A stretch of DNA of 54,448 nt from Deltaproteobacteria bacterium. Lineage in GTDB: Bacteria > Desulfobacterota > Desulfobacteria > Desulfobacterales > JAFDMD01. Shown here in pieces: positions 2,749-33,884 of the stretch (positions within the stretch are counted from its first letter, which is position 1; every line of letters starts with the position of its first letter). The translations under genes and the position numbers were made by a program. The notes under the pieces were generated by a model, which saw nothing but the letters and a program-made list of their open reading frames with translations, made no database searches and was not told where the DNA came from. The stretch is taken from positions 1-54,448 of the forward strand of contig JAFDMD010000001.1 of NCBI GenBank assembly GCA_019306185.1, written 5' to 3'.

Positions 2749-2972
2749 AATATATCAGCCCTTTCATTGAGATATAACCTTATGAAACATTTATAACTAT
2801 CATGATTTCGGTTTAATTATCATATATTTTAAGTTATGTAAAAAATATTTAAGGTTTTTTTTTTATTGAAAAGAGGGGCTTAAAAAGAGATAATAAAAAG
2901 ATTTTTTGCTTTGCTCGACAGGACAGGAAGTAATTTTTTTTACAGCGTCATTTTACAGACTTTTTTTGCCAT

Positions 2973-2996
2973 GAGCGCAGCGAGGAGAAATCTCAT
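2973..2996. repeat. Solo copy of the GGGATTTCTC-type inverted-repeat end (GAGCGCAGCGAGGAGAAATCTC), followed by the ATAAACAGAGGAAA leader module
   Basis: Near-identical strings at 11821-11846 and 29762-29792, and in reverse at 17187-17220 and 32191-32216. Confidence 0.8.
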
Positions 2997-3029
2997 AATA
3001 CAAATATAAACAGAGGAAACATAAAAAAT

Positions 3030-4705: not shown

Positions 4706-5350
4706 ATGAGACAAAGAAAAATAAATAATTTTAAAACGTTGGGTAGAAGATGGGGTTTGTATATACTTATATCTATATGGATGTTTTTACTCGGAGTTTT
4801 TGTAGGCAGAGGAATGGTTGCGGTTCAGTTTGGAAAAGAGCCGAAAACCGAGCAGACAAAAGGAATTTATCCTATAGAAGACAATTCTACAAAAAGTAGT
4901 TCCGAACAAGACGGCATAACAGAAGAATGGAAATTAGGATATTATGAATCCTTGCGAGGAGGCGCCAATTTAAGTCGTTTTGTGGAAGGAAATTTTACCT
5001 CAATAGCGCGGCTTTCCATAGATGCTAATAAAACTTACGATACAAATAAAACCGAAAAAATAAAAAATAACAAAGATAAAAAAGTCGAAGAAAAAGCGGA
5101 AGAGCAAAAAGAGGTTTTTATTGTTCAGGCAGCGGCTTTTTTAAATAAGCAGGATGCGAAAAAATTTATAGCAACATTGAAAAGTAGAGGATACGAGCCT
5201 TATGAATCTGCAGTAACCGTTCAAAATAAAGTTTGGCATAGAGTAAGAATAGGACCGTTTAAAAGTAAATCGGAAGCCGAAAACATATTAAGAAAATTAG
5301 AGAAAGAAAGAGTTAATCCTATCATTTTAAAAATAAAAGAAGGTCAGTAA
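4706..5350 (+). CDS. SPOR-domain membrane protein
   Basis: N-terminal transmembrane helix and a low-complexity K/E linker. C-terminal FIVQAAAF...KVWHRVRIGPFKSKSEAENILRKL matches the SPOR peptidoglycan-binding fold pattern. Confidence 0.8.
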   Translation: MRQRKINNFKTLGRRWGLYILISIWMFLLGVFVGRGMVAVQFGKEPKTEQTKGIYPIEDNSTKSSSEQDGITEEWKLGYYESLRGGANLSRFVEGNFTSIARLSIDANKTYDTNKTEKIKNNKDKKVEEKAEEQKEVFIVQAAAFLNKQDAKKFIATLKSRGYEPYESAVTVQNKVWHRVRIGPFKSKSEAENILRKLEKERVNPIILKIKEGQ

Positions 5351-11728: not shown

Positions 11729-11749
11729 CTAAAATTTAGAAATAATAAA

Positions 11750-11846
11750 GGGATTTCTCGCTTCGCTCGAAATTACAGGCTTCTTATTTCGGCCGACGAA
11801 CCTTTTTTACTATGTTATTTCGACGAGCAAAGCGAGGAGAAATCTC
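11750..11846. mobile_element. MITE-like unit bounded by inverted repeats GGGATTTCTCGCTTCGCTCG ... CGACGAGCAAAGCGAGGAGAAATCTC
   Basis: The two ends are reverse complements apart from a few indels and mismatches. The same end sequence recurs as solo copies at four other intergenic sites. Confidence 0.6.
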
Positions 11847-11947
11847 ATAATTAAAATATAAACAGAGGAAAGCTATATTATTAAAGATAGTTAAACACAA
11901 TTGTAAAGGAGATGACGATCTCCAAAAGTCCTCTGTCCAACAAAAAA

Positions 11948-12045
11948 TTTTGTTTATTTTCAAGGCATGCGAAAATTTTAACCGCAAGAATACATAAATT
12001 ATTTCGAGGATTAAAATTTGAGCATAACGTAGAAAACCGGTAAAA
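11948..12045 (+). repeat. Palindromic intergenic element, copy 1, sense orientation 39 nt upstream of aspS
   Basis: Looks about 85 percent identical by eye to 25863-25960. Arms TTTTGTTTATTTTC / GAAAACCGGTAAAA. The gene-proximal end contains TTGAGC-N17-TAAAAT (12018-12046). Confidence 0.85.
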
Positions 12046-12084
12046 TACGAAGTTAAACAGAGGGCTTTAAGCAGGGGAAAAGAG

Positions 12085-13863
12085 ATGACAACAAGCATTT
12101 TAAAAAGAACGCATAATTGCAATCAGCTTGGAATATCCGATTTAAATAAAGAGACAACCCTTATGGGCTGGGTTCAAACCAGAAGAGATCACGGCGGGGT
12201 TATATTTGTAGATTTAAGAGACAGAGAAGGGGTTACGCAGGTAGTATTTAATCCGGAATATTCGGCAGGTGTTCATAAACAGGCTCATGTAATAAGAAAC
12301 GAGTTTGTTATAGGAATAAAAGGAATAGTTTCAAAAAGACCGGAAGGAATGATAAATAAAAAACTTGCTACCGGCGAAATAGAAATTATGGCGGATCGGC
12401 TTGAAATATATAACAGCGCGTCAACGCCTCCGTTTTTAATAGAAGAGGATACGGATGCTTCCGAAAATATAAGGCTTAGATACAGATACCTTGATTTAAG
12501 ACGCCCGGATATGCAGAAAAATATAAGAACAAGGCATAAAACCGGCGTGGTTATCCGAAACTTTTTAAATGAAAACGGATATTTGGATATAGAAACTCCG
12601 TTTCTTACAAAAAGCACTCCTGAAGGCGCAAGAGATTATCTTGTTCCTTCAAGAGTAAATTCGGGGCAGTTTTACGCGCTGCCGCAGTCTCCGCAGCTTT
12701 TTAAGCAAGTTTTAATGGTTGCTGGCTTTGATAAATATTATCAGATAGTAAAATGTTTCAGAGACGAAGATTTAAGAGCAGACAGACAGCCGGAATTTAC
12801 CCAGATAGATATAGAAGCCTCTTTTGTAGATAAAGAGGAGATAATGAAACTTTCGGAAAAGATGATGAAAAAAATATTTGACGAGATATTAAATATAAAG
12901 CTTAAAATACCGTTTAACAGGCTTAGTTACGACGAGGCTATGTTGCGATACGGGCTTGATAAACCGGATACAAGATTCGGTTTGGAATTGATTGACATCT
13001 CCGAAATAATGGAAAAATCCGGCTGTAAGGTATTTGCAGATGCGGTAAAAAAAGGAGGAATAGTAAAAGCTATAAACGCAAAAAAATGCGCTTCGTTTTC
13101 CAGAAAAGAGATAGAGCAATTTACCGAATTTGTAGGAGTTTATAATGCAAAGGGGCTTGCGTGGATAAAGATAAAAGAGAATGGAAAATGGCAGTCTCCC
13201 ATCGCAAAGTTTTTTACAGAGCAAGAAATAGATGCGCTTTCCGATAAAATAGATATGCAAAAAGACGATATAATATTTTTTGTGGCGGATAAGCCGAAAG
13301 TAGTAAATGAAGCTTTGGGAAATCTTAGAAATCATCTTGCCGAAAAACTTGATTTAATAGATAAAAATTTATACAACTTTTTATGGGTTACAGATTTTCC
13401 GATGTTTCAATATGATGAAGCCGAAAAAGCTTATCAGGCGTTGCATCATCCTTTTACCTCTCCTAAAAAAGCAGATTTAGATAAACTTGAAACGAATCCT
13501 TTAAGCGTAAAATCGGAAGCTTACGATTTGGTGTTAAACGGTTCCGAAATAGGCGGCGGAAGTATTCGTAATCATAGAACAGATATACAAAAAAAAATTT
13601 TCGGCATACTTGGGATTGAAGAAGAAGGTTATAAAGAGAAATTCGGCTTTTTATTAGAAGCCTTGGAAGCGGGAGCGCCTCCTCACGGAGGAATAGCATT
13701 CGGTTTGGATAGGCTTGTTATGATACTTTGCGGAACAACCTCAATAAGAGAGGTTATAGCGTTTCCAAAAACCCAAAAAGCCGCCTGTCTTTTTACAAAC
13801 GCGCCGTCTGCGGCTTCTAAAATGCAGCTTGAAGAACTTTTTATAAAGGTAAAAAGAGTATAA
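12085..13863 (+). CDS. aspS: Aspartyl-tRNA synthetase, bacterial type
   Basis: 592 aa with an OB-fold N-terminus (GWVQTRRDHGGVIFVDLRD), class II motifs (FRDEDLRADRQPEFTQ, GGGSIR, PPHGGIAFGLDR) and the GAD insertion. Confidence 0.93.
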   Translation: MTTSILKRTHNCNQLGISDLNKETTLMGWVQTRRDHGGVIFVDLRDREGVTQVVFNPEYSAGVHKQAHVIRNEFVIGIKGIVSKRPEGMINKKLATGEIEIMADRLEIYNSASTPPFLIEEDTDASENIRLRYRYLDLRRPDMQKNIRTRHKTGVVIRNFLNENGYLDIETPFLTKSTPEGARDYLVPSRVNSGQFYALPQSPQLFKQVLMVAGFDKYYQIVKCFRDEDLRADRQPEFTQIDIEASFVDKEEIMKLSEKMMKKIFDEILNIKLKIPFNRLSYDEAMLRYGLDKPDTRFGLELIDISEIMEKSGCKVFADAVKKGGIVKAINAKKCASFSRKEIEQFTEFVGVYNAKGLAWIKIKENGKWQSPIAKFFTEQEIDALSDKIDMQKDDIIFFVADKPKVVNEALGNLRNHLAEKLDLIDKNLYNFLWVTDFPMFQYDEAEKAYQALHHPFTSPKKADLDKLETNPLSVKSEAYDLVLNGSEIGGGSIRNHRTDIQKKIFGILGIEEEGYKEKFGFLLEALEAGAPPHGGIAFGLDRLVMILCGTTSIREVIAFPKTQKAACLFTNAPSAASKMQLEELFIKVKRV

Positions 13864-17162: not shown

Positions 17163-17186
17163 GTTATAATTTCAACCAATAATTAA

Positions 17187-17220
17187 GGGATTTCTCCTCG
17201 CTGCGTTCGTCAAAATGACA
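17187..17220. repeat. Solo GGGATTTCTCCTCGCTGCGTTCGTCAAAATGACA repeat end
   Basis: Reverse complement differs by only about 2 nt from 29762-29792. Confidence 0.8.
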
Positions 17221-17258
17221 AGATAAAAAACCGCTTGCTGACAAGACAAAAAAAATCC

Positions 17259-23566: not shown

Positions 23567-23784
23567 CTTTTAAAGATTTTAGTTAAAGAAAAGATTACAA
23601 AAGCAATAAGATGATTATCCCTCGCGTTCCCTATTGAAAAGGGGAGATTGATAAGAAATCTTATAATAAAAATATAAACAGAGGAAACGCCCATAACTAC
23701 GTTATAGGCATAAAAAAGAATGATTATGAAAGGAGATGACCATCTCCGAAAAGCCCGCTGTTCAACAAAAAATGAGGAAACATT

Positions 23785-25747: not shown

Positions 25748-25862
25748 CGCTTTACGCTGATGATTATAATCCCCCTTTCCCCTTGAAAAAGGGGAAGTAA
25801 ATAAATAACAATAAAAATATAAAACGAAAGTTCGATGTCCAACTTCGATGTCCAACAAAGAA

Positions 25863-25960
25863 TTTTGTTCGTTTTCAAGGCGCGTGAAAATTTTAACCGC
25901 AGTAATACTTAAAGTATTTCGAGGATTAAAATTTGAGCATAACGCAGAAAACGGGCAAAA
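25863..25960 (+). repeat. Palindromic intergenic element, copy 2, sense orientation 36 nt upstream of clpX
   Basis: Arms TTTTGTTCGTTTTC / GAAAACGGGCAAAA pair 14/14 if two T:G pairs are allowed. Core is shared with 11948-12045. Confidence 0.85.
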
Positions 25961-25996
25961 TACGAAATTAGGCGGCGAACTTTAAAAAGAGGAAAA

Positions 25997-27259
25997 ATGT
26001 CCGAAAACAATCGGAGAAACAAAGAAGAAATGCTTCATTGTTCATTTTGTAAAAAAAGCGAACAACAGGTTTCAAAACTTGTTGCAGGACCAAACGTTTA
26101 TATATGCGATAACTGTGTAAATTTAAGCCTTAAAATAATAACAGACGATGCTAAACAGGATATTTCAAACAAATCAAAAAACCTTTTAACGCCCCGCGAA
26201 ATAAAAGAAAAATTAGACGAATATATAATAGAACAGGATAAAGCAAAAAAAATATTGGCGGTTGCCGTATATAATCATTACAAACGGCTTAATTCCAATA
26301 AAAACAGCGAGGATAACGATGCGGAAATACAAAAAAGCAATGTATTGCTTATAGGACCTACAGGCTGTGGCAAAACCCTGCTTGCCCAAACCCTTGCCAA
26401 ATTTTTAGATGTTCCCTTTACAATAGCTGACGCCACCACCCTTACCGAAGCAGGTTATGTAGGAGAAGACGTAGAAAATATAATAGTTTCTTTAGTTCAA
26501 AATGCCGAATACGACATAGAAAAAGCAAAAAAAGGAATAGTATATATAGATGAAATAGACAAAATCGCAATGAAAAGCGGAGATAACCCCTCCATTACCA
26601 GAGATGTATCCGGCGAAGGCGTTCAACAGGCTCTTCTTAAAATAATAGAAGGCACAACAGCCGCAATTCCCCCCAAAGGCGGAAGAAAACATCCCCAGCA
26701 GGATTTTTTAAAAGTTGATACCTCAAACATACTTTTTATATGCGGCGGGACATTTAGCGGCTTAGAAAAAATTGTTCAAAAAAGAATAAAAGAAAAAACA
26801 ATAGGATTTCAAGCCGACATCTCCGGTAACAAAGATAAAAACAAAGACGAACTCCTTAATATAGTTCAGCCCGAAGACCTCATAAAATACGGACTAATAC
26901 CCGAATTTATAGGAAGAATGCCCGTAACTGCTGCGCTTTGTGAATTTACCGAAGAAACTTTAATAAGAATATTAACCGAACCGAAAAACGCTTTGATCAA
27001 ACAGTATCAAAAACTTTTTCAAATGGAACAGGTAAAATTAAGCTTTACAGACGCAGCGCTTAAAGCGATAGCTTCCGAAGCTTTTAAGCGAAAATCCGGC
27101 GCGAGAGGATTAAGAAGCATAATGGAAAAAGCATTATTTGATATAATGTTTGAACTTCCGTCTTTAAGAGACGTAAAGGAATGCGTAATAGGAGAGGAAG
27201 TAATTTTAAATGCACAAGAGCCGATACTGTTATTTGAACAAAAAAGACAAAAGGCATAA
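25997..27259 (+). CDS. clpX: ATP-dependent Clp protease ATP-binding subunit ClpX
   Basis: Zinc-binding CSFC...CDNC, Walker A GPTGCGKT and Walker [10 protein letters not shown]. Confidence 0.95.
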
Positions 27260-27367: not shown

Positions 27368-29752
27368 ATGAAATTTTTTACGCAAAACGATTCTAACGAA
27401 TCAATGGTTATGATACCCGTTTTACCTTTAAGAGACATAGTAGTATTTCCGTATATGGTAATACCGTTGTTTATAGGCAAAACAAAATCGATAAACGGAC
27501 TTATAGACGCGATGGCAAAAGATAAAAAAATATTTCTTGCCATTGAGACCATAACTACTATCGGCAAAAAAGGAAAAGAGCAGGAAGTTAAAAAAAACAT
27601 AAGCCAAACGGGAACAATAGGCAGCGTTTTACAAATATTAAGACTGCCGGACGGAAACATAAAAGTTTTGGTAGAAGGCAAAATAAGAGGCGAAATAGTC
27701 CGCTTTATAAACAATGATAAATTTATATCCGCAGAAGTCGCGCCGATAAAAGATTTACAAATAGACACTGCGGAAGCGGAAGCTTTAAGACGGTCAATAA
27801 TAAAAAGCTTTGAAAATTACGGCAAAATAAATTCTTCAATCCCAAACGAATTAATAAAAAACATAGCGTCTCTTACGGATCATTCTCAGATGTCAGACAC
27901 AATCGCGTCTCATTTTGCATTTAAAGTTCCGGATAAACTCAAACTGCTTAAAGAAAAATCTTTAAGCAAGCGTTTAAACCTTTTACTATCTTTTATAGAC
28001 ATGGAAATAGAAATATTTAAAATGGAAAACAAAATAAAAGAGAACGTAAAAGAGAAAATGGATAAGGCTCATAAAGATTATTATCTTAACGAAAAAATAA
28101 AAGCCTTAAAAAAAGAGATGGGAAAAGAAGAGGATACCGGAGACGAATTAAAAGACCTTGAAGAACAAATAAACAAAAAAGAAATGTCCGAAGAGGCGGT
28201 AAAAAAAGCAAAGCATGAATTTTCCAAACTAAAAAAAATGGCTTCGATATCTCCCGAAGCAGCAGTTATACGAAACTACATAGATTGGATAATAAGCCTG
28301 CCCTGGTATGAACAAAGCGAAATATTAGAAAATATAACAGAGGCGGAAATAATATTGGATGAAGACCATTACGGACTAAAAAAGCCGAAAGAAAGAATAT
28401 TAGAATATCTTGCCGTCCAACTTCTGATAAAAAAAGTCCGCGGACCAATATTATGCTTTGTAGGACCTCCGGGAGTAGGCAAAACCTCGCTTGCGAAATC
28501 GGTTGCAAGAGCAACCGGCAGAAAATTTGTCCGGCTTTCTCTTGGCGGAGTAAGAGACGAAGCCGAAATACGAGGACACAGGCGCACATACATAGGAGCA
28601 ATGCCGGGCAAAGTAATACAATCGCTTAAAAAAGCCGGAGCAAACAACCCCGTTTTCTGCCTTGACGAAGTTGATAAAATGAGCATGGACTTTAGAGGCG
28701 ACCCCTCTTCCGCGCTTTTGGAAGTATTAGACCCCGAACAAAACAACACATTCAACGATCATTACCTTGATATTGATTACGACCTTTCCGACATACTATT
28801 TATAACAACCGCAAACGTTTTACACGAAATACCTTTGCCCCTTCAAGACAGAATGGAAGTTATAAAACTACACGGATATACCGAAGACGAAAAGCTTGAG
28901 ATAGCAAAAACTTTTCTAATATCAAAGCAAATAAAATTAAACGGGCTTGAAGGCAGAAAAATAAGCTTTACTCACGACGCAATAGCCACAATAATAAGCA
29001 GATACACCAAAGAAGCCGGAGTAAGAAATCTGGAGCGAGAAATCGCCTCGATCTGCAGAAAAATTGCAAAACAAATAGTAAAAGACAAAAAAGACAAGCC
29101 ATTTAGAATAATAAAAAGCTCAATTAAAAACTATCTCGGAGTTTATAAATTCAAACGAAACCAAATAGAAGATAAAAACCAAATAGGGCTTGTAAACGGC
29201 TTGGCGTGGACGCAAGCCGGCGGAGAACTTCTTAACGTAGAAGCGCTCATAATGAAAGGCAAAGGAAACGTTCTTACTACGGGAAAACTCGGAGACGTAA
29301 TGAAAGAATCCGCAAGCGCAGCACTAAGCTACGTTCGTTCCAGATCAGACAAATTAAATATAGAAGAAGATTTTTATAAAAACTTCGACATACACATACA
29401 CGTTCCCGAAGGCGCAATTCCAAAAGACGGACCATCTGCAGGAATTACAATGTGCACTGCAATAATATCCGCCGTTACAAAAAGACCCGTTTATAACAAC
29501 ATAGCAATGACAGGCGAATTAACCCTGCGCGGAAGAGTTCTTCCCATAGGCGGATTAAAAGAAAAAATAATAGCCGCCTATACAAGCGGAATAAAAAAAA
29601 TCATAATACCCAAAGAAAACGAAAAAGACCTAAAAGAAACGTCAAAAACAATAATGTCCGAAGTTGAAATAATAAGCGTAGAGCATATGGATGAAGTATT
29701 GCCGCATGCGTTGATTTCGGCGTTGGATAAAAATTTTAATCCTCAAAAATAA
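27368..29752 (+). CDS. lon: Lon protease (LonA), paralog 1
   Basis: LON N-domain ([12 protein letters not shown]), Walker [10 protein letters not shown], and the protease Ser-Lys dyad context PKDGPSAG / ...GLKEK. Confidence 0.93.
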
Positions 29753-29761
29753 AAAGTCAGC

Positions 29762-29792
29762 CATTTTGACGAGCGCAGCGAGGAGAAATCCC
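29762..29792. repeat. Solo repeat end CATTTTGACGAGCGCAGCGAGGAGAAATCCC
   Basis: Lies between the convergent lon and selB genes. Matches the reverse complement of 17187-17220. Confidence 0.8.
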
Positions 29793-29796
29793 TTAA

Positions 29797-31707
29797 TTAT
29801 TTCCCCCTTAAAATCCTTTGATCCCCCACCCTTATCGTAACTCCGCTTAAATCAAAAAATTCTAACAACGGAATAAGAAATTTTCTCGGAACCCGGGCAA
29901 TCTTTTTAAATTGAGCCGCGGTAATCTCCTTATTATCCTGCAAAAATTTTACAAGCTTTTCCTTAAGCAAATTTACGGCATCGGCGTTAAAATACAAATC
30001 CTCCTTTGCTTTAACCAAAAGCCCCTCTTTTATCAGCATAGCAAACAACTCCTTTGCGTCCTTTGCGTTTATATCAAATTTTTTAATCAACCCGCTTGCA
30101 TAAGCCGGAGTTAATCCGCCTTTTTCATAATCTTTTAAAATATCTTCTCTAATCTTCTTGTGATCCGCCAAAAGCAAAACCTTATGTGCTGCAAGCCTCA
30201 CAATATCTTCAGCCAAAACAATAATCCCGCTTTTTATCATATTATTTAAAATAAGATTAAAAAGCTTCGGCTTAATATCGTAAAGAATTTTAGATTTTAA
30301 CTCCTCTTTTAAAATTCCTTCTTTAAGCGGATTATCTTTATGAAAAACTTCAAGCCGTTTTTTAGTATTTTCAATCAAAGCTTCTAACGTATCTTTATGG
30401 ATATAAATTCTATTTTCTTTATCCAATAAAATTACGGTTTTTGAAGAAAGATATTTTGCCAAAACAGCGTTTAACCTCTTTTCGGCAATATTTGTCATAA
30501 TAATCAAATCCGATAATCCAAGCCCCTTATGTCCGGCTTCTTTTATATGAAAAAGTAAAATCTGTTCCGTATCTTCTTTAAAAGCATCTTTAACAGCGCA
30601 AATTTTATCTTTTGCCTCAAGCTTTAACTTTTTTGCGATAGGATTTAAAATAACTCCGCCGCCAATAGTTTTAACCGGAGAATAACTTCTTATAACAAAT
30701 CTGTCATCTTTTACCGCCGCAATAGGAGTATAAAGCCTAATCTGCGCAAAACAACTCTCCCCTGTCTCAAGCTTTTCTTTATCTAACAAAATCAGATTTG
30801 CCATAGTTTCCACCGTTGCAGTATGAAAACGAACCTTTGTATTGTTTTTTAATGGCTTTTTTGCGCTTTTAAGATAATTAAGCTCAACGTCTATAATATA
30901 ACTCGGTTTTAAAAAATTTTTTTCCGAAACTGCATACCCCCTATTTAAAAGAGATTTTTCAAGCCCCTGAAAATTAATTGCGCATCTTGTTCCCGCTCTC
31001 GCTTCGTTTACGCTTTGGCTATGAACCTGAACCCCTCTTACCTTCGATATAATCTCAGGCGGATAAATACAAACGGTATCTCCGGTTTTAACCGTTCCGG
31101 CAATAACTGTTCCCGTAATAACCGTTCCGAAACCCTTCATCGTAAAAACCCTGTCTATGGGAAGCCGAAACCTATTTAAACAGATCCGCTCCGGTATTTT
31201 TTCGGCAATATTTTCAAGAGCTGCCGCAAATTCGTCAATACCCGCGCCCGTTGTTGAAGATACCGGAATTATCGGCGCGTTTTCCAAAAATGTCTCTTTT
31301 GTAAACTCGGTAATCTCCTCTATTACAAGATCAAGCCAATCTTCTTCAACCATATCAATTTTTGTAAGCGCCACAATTCCATGCTTTATTCCCAACAAAG
31401 AACAAATCTCCATATGCTCTTTCGTCTGCGGCATAATACCTTCGTCCGCCGCTATAATCATTGCAACCAAATCAATCCCGGTTGCGCCCGCGACCATATT
31501 TTTTACAAACTTTTCGTGTCCCGGAACATCCACCACCCCCAATCGCCTTCCATTAGGCAAAGTTAAAGAGGCAAAACCAAGCTCAATTGTAATGCCTCTT
31601 TCTTTCTCTTCTTTAAGCCTATCAGTATCAATGCCGGTAAGCGCCTTTATAAGACTTGTTTTTCCATGATCAATATGCCCCGATGTGCCCAGAATAATAT
31701 CTTTCAA
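29797..31707 (-). CDS. selB: Selenocysteine-specific elongation factor SelB (TTG start)
   Basis: GTPase G1 GHIDHGKT and DVPGHE. Four C-terminal winged-helix repeats give the 636-aa length. AAGGAG lies 8 nt before the TTG. Confidence 0.88.
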   Translation of the reverse strand: MKDIILGTSGHIDHGKTSLIKALTGIDTDRLKEEKERGITIELGFASLTLPNGRRLGVVDVPGHEKFVKNMVAGATGIDLVAMIIAADEGIMPQTKEHMEICSLLGIKHGIVALTKIDMVEEDWLDLVIEEITEFTKETFLENAPIIPVSSTTGAGIDEFAAALENIAEKIPERICLNRFRLPIDRVFTMKGFGTVITGTVIAGTVKTGDTVCIYPPEIISKVRGVQVHSQSVNEARAGTRCAINFQGLEKSLLNRGYAVSEKNFLKPSYIIDVELNYLKSAKKPLKNNTKVRFHTATVETMANLILLDKEKLETGESCFAQIRLYTPIAAVKDDRFVIRSYSPVKTIGGGVILNPIAKKLKLEAKDKICAVKDAFKEDTEQILLFHIKEAGHKGLGLSDLIIMTNIAEKRLNAVLAKYLSSKTVILLDKENRIYIHKDTLEALIENTKKRLEVFHKDNPLKEGILKEELKSKILYDIKPKLFNLILNNMIKSGIIVLAEDIVRLAAHKVLLLADHKKIREDILKDYEKGGLTPAYASGLIKKFDINAKDAKELFAMLIKEGLLVKAKEDLYFNADAVNLLKEKLVKFLQDNKEITAAQFKKIARVPRKFLIPLLEFFDLSGVTIRVGDQRILRGK

Positions 31708-31721
31708 TCTTTACTCCTTAT

Positions 31722-31856
31722 TAAGACCCTTGCCAGACTTCTTATTTTCTGCGTTATACTCAAATCTTACCACTCGAAATACCGTAAGTATGCCCGCGTT
31801 TAAAATTTGAGCAAGACAGGGAAATAAACAAAATTTTTTGTTATGCAAGGGTCTTA
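31722..31856 (-). repeat. Palindromic intergenic element, copy 4 (diverged), sense orientation 14 nt upstream of selB
   Basis: Perfect 12-bp outer arms TAAGACCCTTGC / GCAAGGGTCTTA. The interior shares TTTTCTGCGTTAT and the AAATTT arm pattern with 50687-50836. Confidence 0.7.
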
Positions 31857-32055: not shown

Positions 32056-32190
32056 AATTTTTTTTCGTTTTTCCGTATTTTTTTTCGTTATCCGAAATCC
32101 CGTCTCCGTTTTTCGATTTATTCGATTAACAAATATATAGGGACATAGGGACAAAGTTTAAAATGAATTGTTTTTTATAATTTTAATCAA

Positions 32191-32216
32191 GGGATTTCTC
32201 CCTTCGGTTGACAAGA
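32191..32216. repeat. Solo GGGATTTCTCCCTTCGGTTGACAAGA repeat end
   Basis: Same head as 11750 and 17187. Marks the left edge of the accessory islet. Confidence 0.7.
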
Positions 32217-33198: not shown

Positions 33199-33516
33199 TT
33201 ATATTAACTTTATTCCTGTTTTTAAAATTTCTTTTGCAAACGGGTTATGCAGGTTAAAATCGGCGGGCGAAAAGGGCAGAACTTCTATTTCGCTGCTAAC
33301 GGATAAGGTTAGACTTCTTATTTTATCTTTATCCTCAATTCTATCGCCTGTGAATATGTCCGAAACCAAAGCAATATCAATATCGCTCCATTTATTATAA
33401 TTTCCTTTAGCATAGCTGCCGAATAGAACCGCTTTTTTTATGGGAATATTATTTTTGATTAGAAGGTTAAGATATTTTTCTATTCTGTTTTTTATTTTAA
33501 TAGGGAGTCGAACCAT
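33199..33516 (-). CDS. Minimal nucleotidyltransferase (MNT-type antitoxin)
   Basis: LFGSYAKGNYNKWSDIDIALV fits the GSxxxG...SDxD Pol-beta NTase motif. Overlaps the HEPN gene by 25 nt. Confidence 0.85.
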   Translation of the reverse strand: MVRLPIKIKNRIEKYLNLLIKNNIPIKKAVLFGSYAKGNYNKWSDIDIALVSDIFTGDRIEDKDKIRSLTLSVSSEIEVLPFSPADFNLHNPFAKEILKTGIKLI

Positions 33517-33884
33517 TTGTAAAACTCCTTAATTTTATCAAAATATTTATTAGTAAACTCTTTTGTGCATCGCTGATAAAATTCAAGTTTATAATCGGGA
33601 TAGCGTATCTGAATATTGAAATCATTTATTTTATCCAAAAGAAATTTCTGTTCATTATTCGGTTTTATCTTCGATAATTCTGTCAAACGCACGAGATTAT
33701 GAATTTTAGGCGGCGTATCATTATTATTCTTGTCAACAAATACTGCTTTTAATATTTTTTCTAATGCCAAATGCCCGACAAATAAACATCAATCATAGCG
33801 TTTTGATTTAAACATGCTTGCGGCGGATTCAAGATCATGGGAAGCGGTTTTTCGCCAATAAGCAATATGTTCTTCTTTTGTCAT
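33492..33884 (-). pseudogene. HEPN-domain protein interrupted by an in-frame TGA at codon 32
   Basis: ATG at 33884 gives MTKEEHIAYWRKTASHDLESAASMFKSKRYD-TGA-CLFVGHLALEKILKAVF..., all in one frame. The track ORF only begins at an internal TTG (33770). Confidence 0.75.

Follow-up and report, generated by a model that had tools for sequence, protein, structure and literature searches.

The window analysed here is the whole 54,448-nt stretch at positions 1 to 54,448 of contig JAFDMD010000001.1, from a deltaproteobacterial genome assembly of the Desulfobacterales (GCA_019306185.1). It carries four full copies of an imperfect palindrome of 133–157 nt, one each in the hisS-aspS and clpP-clpX spacers and the other two in divergent promoter regions, and one partial copy at the end of a lon gene, which amounts to 4.5 copies in 54 kb. 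The genes downstream were identified as aspS, clpX and selB by NCBIfam and as the prepilin peptidase gene pilD by Pfam, just as the original prediction, made from the letters alone, had named them; on the upstream side, copies 1 and 2 are preceded by hisS and clpP (NCBIfam). The features are as follows.

11925–12068, plus strand: full copy 1, a member of the W subfamily between hisS and aspS; the aspS ATG is at 12085, 16 nt on
11973–12008, plus strand: core pattern match in copy 1
12018–12046, plus strand: sigma-70-like TTGAGC-N17-TAAAAT inside copy 1 (promoter scan, 9/12 matches)
25827–25983, plus strand: full copy 2, in the clpP-clpX spacer; the clpX ATG is at 25997, 13 nt on; 108.1 bits
25888–25923, plus strand: core pattern match in copy 2
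29712–29748, minus strand (antisense): partial copy, matching the right half of the core, within the terminal part of lon; lon stop codon at 29750–29752
31723–31855, minus strand: full copy 3, upstream of selB in a spacer between divergent genes; the selB TTG start is at 31707; 70.9 bits
31773–31808, minus strand: core pattern match in copy 3
50687–50836, minus strand: full copy 4, between the divergent genes pilD (ATG at 50668) and lon (the second lon gene); 103.4 bits
50750–50785, minus strand: core pattern match in copy 4

That four related palindromic copies lie at these places was clearly confirmed. A degenerate 36-nt core pattern gave exactly four matches in the window and none in 100 shuffles, and a covariance model run on the window with the filters off returned the same four at 71–108 bits and no further full copy. 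Two extents had been drawn too narrowly: the copies taken to be 98 nt long in fact span 11925–12068 (aspS) and 25827–25983 (clpX). The selB copy runs from 31723 to 31855. The copies are 74–88% identical to one another by repeat finding. Within the family they are among the most decayed members (67% identical over the full length), and their hairpin energies in the weakest case reach only −38 kcal/mol, the family mean being −60.

Each copy has its own history of change. The aspS copy (101.8 bits by the covariance model), with the arms AAAGTCCTCTGT...ACAGAGGGCTTT, folds into one long hairpin; the left arm of the clpX copy bears a 13-nt internal tandem duplication, TTCGATGTCCAAC being present twice; and in the selB copy, with the arms AAGACCCTTGC...GCAAGGGTCTT, a deletion has shortened the right arm. 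The pilD copy forms the best-paired hairpin of the four (MFE −68 to −75 kcal/mol, z about −12) and was also picked up as inverted repeat I5 by repeat finding. In all of them the outer arms are unlike between copies and still pair within each copy, as had been noticed from the letters. The element has no coding capacity, the only ORF-like stretch being a spurious 45-codon call inside the clpX copy. The partial copy at 29712–29748, an nhmmer match to model positions 55–91 (E=2e-4), lies antisense to lon and supplies its last 11 codons, after which the stop codon follows; relatives of this Lon carry an unrelated tail of about 30 amino acids after ...HALI, which the window Lon lacks.

Several other features were observed in the window. 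The two full-length lon paralogues (27368–29752 and 51093–53465) are about 72% identical in nucleotide sequence over long stretches, and the second is divergent from pilD across the element copy. About 11 tandem copies of a 17-nt unit (ATAGATTGAGTTCTGTA) lie at 224–444, upstream of a minus-strand ORF at 528–1592. A second repeat family (GGGATTTCTCGCTTCGCTCGA ... TCGACGAGCGCAGCGAGGAGAAATC) occurs at 2880–3019, 11743–11871, 17178–17230, 23631–23687, 29762–29801 and 32184–32211; it is itself palindromic at two sites, adjoins the main element in the hisS-aspS spacer, and likewise stands next to an element copy in another genome, JAFDMF (locus L061, about 2730–2770). The block ATAAT.AAAATATAAACAGAGGAAA stands just upstream of three unrelated genes, at 2996–3019, 11848–11871 and 23663–23687, and could be a shared promoter or ribosome-binding module linked to this second family. 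Finally, adjoining nucleotidyltransferase and HEPN genes at 33199–33770 on the minus strand (Pfam matches in locus L145) resemble a toxin-antitoxin module.

A scan of species-representative genomes with the core pattern gave 64 exact core matches in 30 assemblies, all of them metagenome-assembled genomes (MAGs) labelled Desulfobacterales, Desulfobacteraceae, Deltaproteobacteria, Thermodesulfobacteriota, or more vaguely; the genome of the window itself is not among the 30. At least 14 of the matches lie in JAHIFE. In addition, the covariance model revealed nine more diverged members, outside the ascertainment by the core pattern, in 714 kb of unrelated clpX-centred metagenome loci. Viral contigs, plasmids and phages gave no matches to the element, and Rfam, at both gathering and permissive thresholds, returned only tRNAs and chance long-hairpin matches far below the cut-off. 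[quoted passage not shown] The 51 full copies that were aligned fall into lineage-specific subfamilies with an 84%-identical core, a figure inflated by the 23 core positions that the 23 specified bases of the search pattern fix, so that part of the core conservation is ascertainment; the outer arms are 45% identical between genomes.

The element is more than a pair of terminal repeats, folding along its entire length into one irregular hairpin. This fold is clearly maintained, and with unusual strictness, as the stems covary and the loop motifs outlast stem replacement. RNAalifold applied to the core gave one irregular hairpin of 31 pairs, 12 of which show compensatory changes. In this structure 96.8% of the cells are paired as compared to 90.0% in shuffles; the covariation score is 0.217 vs. 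0.098 in shuffles (reached by none of 500) and 0.015–0.07 for slid partners; and the 12 pairs with double changes compare with 7.7 ± 1.3 in shuffles. The diverged members have wholly different stem sequences and the same architecture, keeping an unpaired CAAGG in the 5′ arm, an unpaired AACGCNG in the 3′ arm (AACGCAG elsewhere in the family) and an apical GNNTAC-N5-GTANNY hairpin with two basal G-U pairs. Inside the elements at loci L023, L052, L050, L063 and L048 we also observed nested insertions of 22–27 nt, short GC-rich hairpins such as CCCGCTCAGCGGG, or TAGCGCTAAAGCTTCACTAAAGTGC, the latter being present in both orientations, which suggests a second, tinier family of mobile hairpins.

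One strand of the element folds better than the other because of G-T wobble positions. The strand called “sense” in the original prediction is the more stable in 47 of the 51 copies (mean −59.9 vs. −48.8 kcal/mol) and in nine of ten diverged members, counts that come from copies which are not phylogenetically independent, and the consensus fold reaches −21.9 kcal/mol on this strand vs. −9.3 kcal/mol on the other. In the outermost, lineage-specific arms, the wobble-giving transitions favour it by 95 to 52. The two T-opposite-G positions pointed out earlier in the clpX copy are indeed present and turned out to be wobble positions of the whole family (columns 52:143 and 53:142). For the four window copies, the folding energies do not favour either strand.

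The young members of the family bear the marks of mobility. Within JAHIFE, JBDRRF, JAADHK and JAJSZO the copies are 92–96% identical over the full length and adjoin unrelated housekeeping genes, and several contigs terminate inside the element where the assembly breaks. Copies with GAGCC...GGCTC termini are flanked by variable 4-bp direct repeats (TCAA, TAAA, TAAT, AGTA, CTTT, AATC and others), and those with GTGCCC...GGGCAC termini by 6-bp repeats of the form TANNTA. When the left and right flanks of different copies were paired as a control, direct repeats of at least 5 bp were found in 4.5% of the mismatched flanks vs. 27 of the 51 true copies, and repeats of at least 6 bp in 2% vs. 37%. 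Target-site duplications of 4–6 bp are present in the family taken as a whole, and are absent from the W subfamily, including all four window copies.

Comparison of loci that share genes also speaks of mobility. The clpP-clpX spacer is 249 nt long in the window and 69 nt in the closest relative (locus L146), which shows no trace of the element. The window ClpX is 87% and 82% identical to the proteins of two short contigs in a larger protein collection, the nearest relative being the one at 87%, and at most 71% identical to those of JGI metagenome contigs; a second empty site was sought through AspS homologues, none of which exceeded 68% identity, and none was found. An 11-base run (ATGTCCAACAA) is common to the left arm of the clpX copy (window 25831–25856) and to L146 945–970, the clpX start-codon region of this element-free relative, and this match may be a coincidence. 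In the tig-clpP-clpX-lon cluster, the element occupies differing spacers in different genomes and both orientations: before tig, between tig and clpP, between clpP and clpX (as in the window), between clpX and lon, and after lon. No orthologous insertion sites were found among the loci sharing genes, the element being placed differently in each.

We searched about 8 kb around each match, some 0.5 Mb of flanking DNA in all, for a source of mobility. Repeats of the terminal 27–28-mers proved in all cases to be paired arms of one and the same element, no longer stretch of DNA with the element termini at both ends was seen in these flanks, and an all-against-all comparison of the 442 flanking ORFs yielded no transposase, only housekeeping clusters (recA, alaS, ruvB, sensor kinases). 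At L035 (4227–5776), three copies in the same orientation with a 725-nt period bracket two identical 141-aa genes, an arrangement that looks like a tandem duplication via recombination between copies. Copies lying close together within one locus have their orientation in common. By the features that define MITEs, the element is small and without coding capacity, has terminal inverted repeats, and is dispersed with presence/absence differences; a parent insertion sequence or transposase sharing its termini was not seen in the roughly 8 kb examined per match.

The four window copies, taken by themselves, gave the impression of a structured 5′ leader, that is, a riboswitch-like cis-regulator upstream of aspS, clpX, selB and pilD which senses a signal or a protein. 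All four are in the sense orientation, the ATAACGCAGAAA end facing each start codon at a distance of 14–39 nt, exactly as predicted, and the covarying stems and the better folding of the sense strand family-wide are what a leader would show. To see the gene context elsewhere, we applied a crude longest-ORF gene call to all loci, which gave 74 copies outside the window. In 22 of these cases the next gene downstream shares the strand of the element, and in 38 it has the opposite one, so the rule that the ATAACGCAGAAA end points at a start codon fails as a property of the family. Where both neighbours lie within 500 nt (n=43), the contexts divide into 25 tandem, 9 divergent and 9 convergent, about as expected if insertion into intergenic DNA were random, and in the tandem contexts the element is antisense in 18 cases and sense in 7 (p = 0.04); the better-folding strand is thus mostly not the one transcribed with the neighbouring genes. 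Many copies are flanked by convergent genes or directly adjoin a stop codon, and the neighbouring genes are functionally unrelated.

These orientation data largely refute the leader. There is further evidence against it: the nearest relative has clpX without the element, the spacers occupied differ between genomes, the window copies show no strand asymmetry, and the architecture, one long hairpin, has neither a junction nor a pocket. Of the properties expected of a leader or riboswitch, the covarying fold is there, and the constant sense orientation upstream of a coherent gene set is not. The original prediction had made its case depend on covariation in the arms together with orientation relative to genes: the arms do covary and the sense strand does fold better, but the sense-upstream rule does not hold outside the window. 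We regard a leader function as very improbable; the nearness of the window copies to start codons would rather reflect the shortness of the spacers.

The other reading put forward at the outset was a promoter-donating MITE of the Correia type, whose gene-proximal end would give the adjacent gene a −35/−10 pair. Its MITE part stood up well, being borne out by the duplications, the near-identical dispersed copies and the empty site. As for the promoter, TTGAGC-N17-TAAAAT is present at 12018–12046, as reported, and ends 39 nt before the aspS start; locus L005 has the same arrangement, and aspS, selB and pilD have little other promoter room between the element and the start codon. But only two of the 51 copies pass the promoter scan, and in the window the aspS copy alone does so, the other three failing. 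The TTGAGC box sits in a covarying stem and reads TTTCAC, TTTTAT or TTGCGC in other copies, and in most genomes the TTGAGC end points towards the 3′ terminus of a converging gene. A scan of the 51 copies found no conserved promoter on either strand of the element, and promoter donation as the role of the family appears improbable.

The conserved fold of a single strand also raised the possibility that the element is not a MITE moved by a DDE-type enzyme but a single-stranded DNA substrate for a tyrosine or HUH enzyme, similar to attC sites or to REPINs with their RAYT proteins. The attC boxes have the consensus RYYYAAC/GTTRRRY, and the aspS copy reads GTCCAAC...GTTAAAC around an unpaired spacer of 4–5 nt, much like such boxes. 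Strand-asymmetric folding with conserved wobble and bulged positions, conservation of structure rather than of stem sequence, and concerted change from arm to arm would all suit such a substrate. The boxes, however, fit the aspS copy only and the clpX copy in part, and they fail in the GAGCC and GTGCCC subfamilies. Moreover, young copies are flanked by variable target duplications of 4–6 bp, and we know of no HUH/RAYT system or attC recombination that makes them. The copies stand singly beside housekeeping genes rather than in cassette arrays, and no integrase or RAYT-like gene recurs nearby. Altogether, this makes recombination of that kind hardly probable.

The position of the element relative to gene ends shows a bias of its own. 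The stop codons of converging genes lie 20–27 nt from the right edge of the core, which is the right terminus of the element, in 17 cases, whereas the left equivalent was found in 2. In other words, of 38 converging genes, 17 have their ends only a few nucleotides from the right terminus, the stop codon at these sites being made of TA from the duplicated target and G from the element. At L002 (about 5230–5300, minus strand), the right arm is directly followed by the start of a tRNA gene. The stop-codon bias, along with the conservation of the loops across stem turnover, hints at selection beyond selfish spread.

This could mean that a hairpin which had spread as a MITE was later domesticated by the host and is now kept for its effect in RNA, where it would set the 3′ ends of mRNAs, their stability or their processing (by RNase III or RNase E), or would terminate or attenuate transcription between genes. 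Apart from the stop codons, covarying stems with loop motifs conserved over deep divergence speak for it, several W copies have A-tract/GC-stem/T-tract arms like those of bidirectional terminators (L035, L010, L061), and ERIC and Correia elements offer precedents for such effects (PMC10969869, PMC3184786). On the other side, the strand transcribed in tandem contexts is usually the one that folds less well, and the insertion sites are not conserved between species. No intrinsic terminator was called at any of the four window copies, although some W copies elsewhere have T-tracts, and the W copies in the aspS and clpX operon spacers have no U-tracts. Domestication of this sort therefore seems to us a possible but minority explanation.

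The arms of the W subfamily (the window, JAOZTP and JAFDMF) pose a separate problem. Their outermost 10–13 nt vary from copy to copy and are still complementary; thus L030 and L061, from one genome, have identical 105-nt cores and three coordinated double changes in the outer arms. Cut-and-paste transposition with point mutation does not explain this concerted change. We considered that the outer arms might be pre-existing palindromic targets, e.g., terminator loops, and rejected this, since no unoccupied palindromes were found in the window or the related loci; the palindrome matches to L030 were coincidences in coding sequences, not empty targets. A more speculative answer would be a hairpin-dependent class of element, in which a folded strand (RNA or single-stranded DNA), with the CAAGG/AACGCAG loop and the apical GNNTAC-N5-GTANNY hairpin, is read throughout the order by a dedicated protein and the arms are templated on each other. 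We consider this rather unlikely as it stands; if true, arm templating and a dedicated reader would explain the identical cores with coordinately changed termini, the better-folding strand and the placement at stop codons.

Among known systems, bcr1 of the Bacillus cereus group and the ERIC sequences behave most like this element. Elements of the bcr1 family are about 155 bp long and non-coding, occupy non-conserved sites, are flanked by 5-bp direct repeats and keep their fold by compensatory changes (PMC3184786), so that size, dispersal, short flanking repeats and compensatory changes are all shared with the element described here. The two differ in sequence and in host phylum, and bcr1 forms a cruciform-like pair of stem-loops instead of one long hairpin; its transcription has been shown experimentally, whereas our element is known from sequence alone. 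ERIC is an imperfect palindrome of about 127 bp, present order-wide at positions that differ by species and in very variable copy number. It often lies at the 3′ ends of genes, and its effects on mRNA are reported to depend on orientation (PMC10969869, PMC3184786). The order-wide distribution of an imperfect palindrome at variable positions is common to both. ERIC is flanked by TA, however, while the duplications here are 4 bp, 6 bp (TANNTA) or absent; the hosts (Desulfobacterales MAGs only) and the non-TA flanks of the GAGCC subfamily set the element apart.

The Correia elements of Neisseria (CREE/NEMIS) have a 26-bp terminal repeat, a TA duplication, recurrent outward promoters and RNase III cleavage, and are co-transcribed with their neighbours, which places a hairpin in the RNA. 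As MITEs of 100–160 bp with long inverted repeats they are like our element, one window copy of which has a promoter-like end. The likeness is limited by the lineage-variable termini of our element, its 4- or 6-bp duplications and the occurrence of the promoter-like site in only 2 of 51 copies. In Geobacter uraniireducens, the Chunjie MITE (178–235 bp, one species) was found inside an operon without breaking it; by description, it resembles the present element as a MITE of a related lineage (formerly Deltaproteobacteria) that can be operon-internal, like the hisS-aspS and clpP-clpX copies. REPINs are hairpin-forming inverted-repeat doublets of short REP units that insert without duplicating their target and require a single-copy RAYT gene. 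Their stems likewise stay complementary within genomes, but the element here has target duplications and no RAYT-like recurrent neighbour among the 442 flanking ORFs.

In summary, the element represents a previously undescribed, MITE-like family resembling bcr1, ERIC and Correia. On the best-supported reading, which we regard as probable, the window copies are old, diverged members of this dispersed imperfect palindrome of 130–160 nt, a non-autonomous element of the MITE kind found on the chromosomes of many uncultured Desulfobacterales. It would be moved in trans by a staggered-cutting transposase, none having been seen in the roughly 0.5 Mb of flanks searched, and its folded single strand, as RNA or single-stranded DNA, would be recognised by a protein, most simply by its own mobilisation machinery. 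Effects on neighbouring genes would then be by-products: read-through puts a hairpin of 50–60 bp into the transcript, which could alter mRNA processing or stability. The window copies, decayed and, in two cases, placed in operon spacers without U-tracts, fit tolerated old insertions. On this reading, the element has been maintained in the Desulfobacterales for long enough to divide into lineage-specific subfamilies.

This is a new and apparently abundant repeat family in a major group of sulfate reducers of the sea and of sediments, a group represented almost entirely by MAGs. It breaks assemblies, yields spurious calls of small ORFs and has remodelled the C-terminus of a lon product, and it cautions that a motif shared upstream of several genes in one window does not amount to regulation. 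With its covarying stems, loop motifs, preferred strand and concerted arms, the family is a natural data set on the upkeep of long hairpins, and it could make RNA- vs. DNA-level selection on ERIC-like repeats testable in a second, independent lineage.
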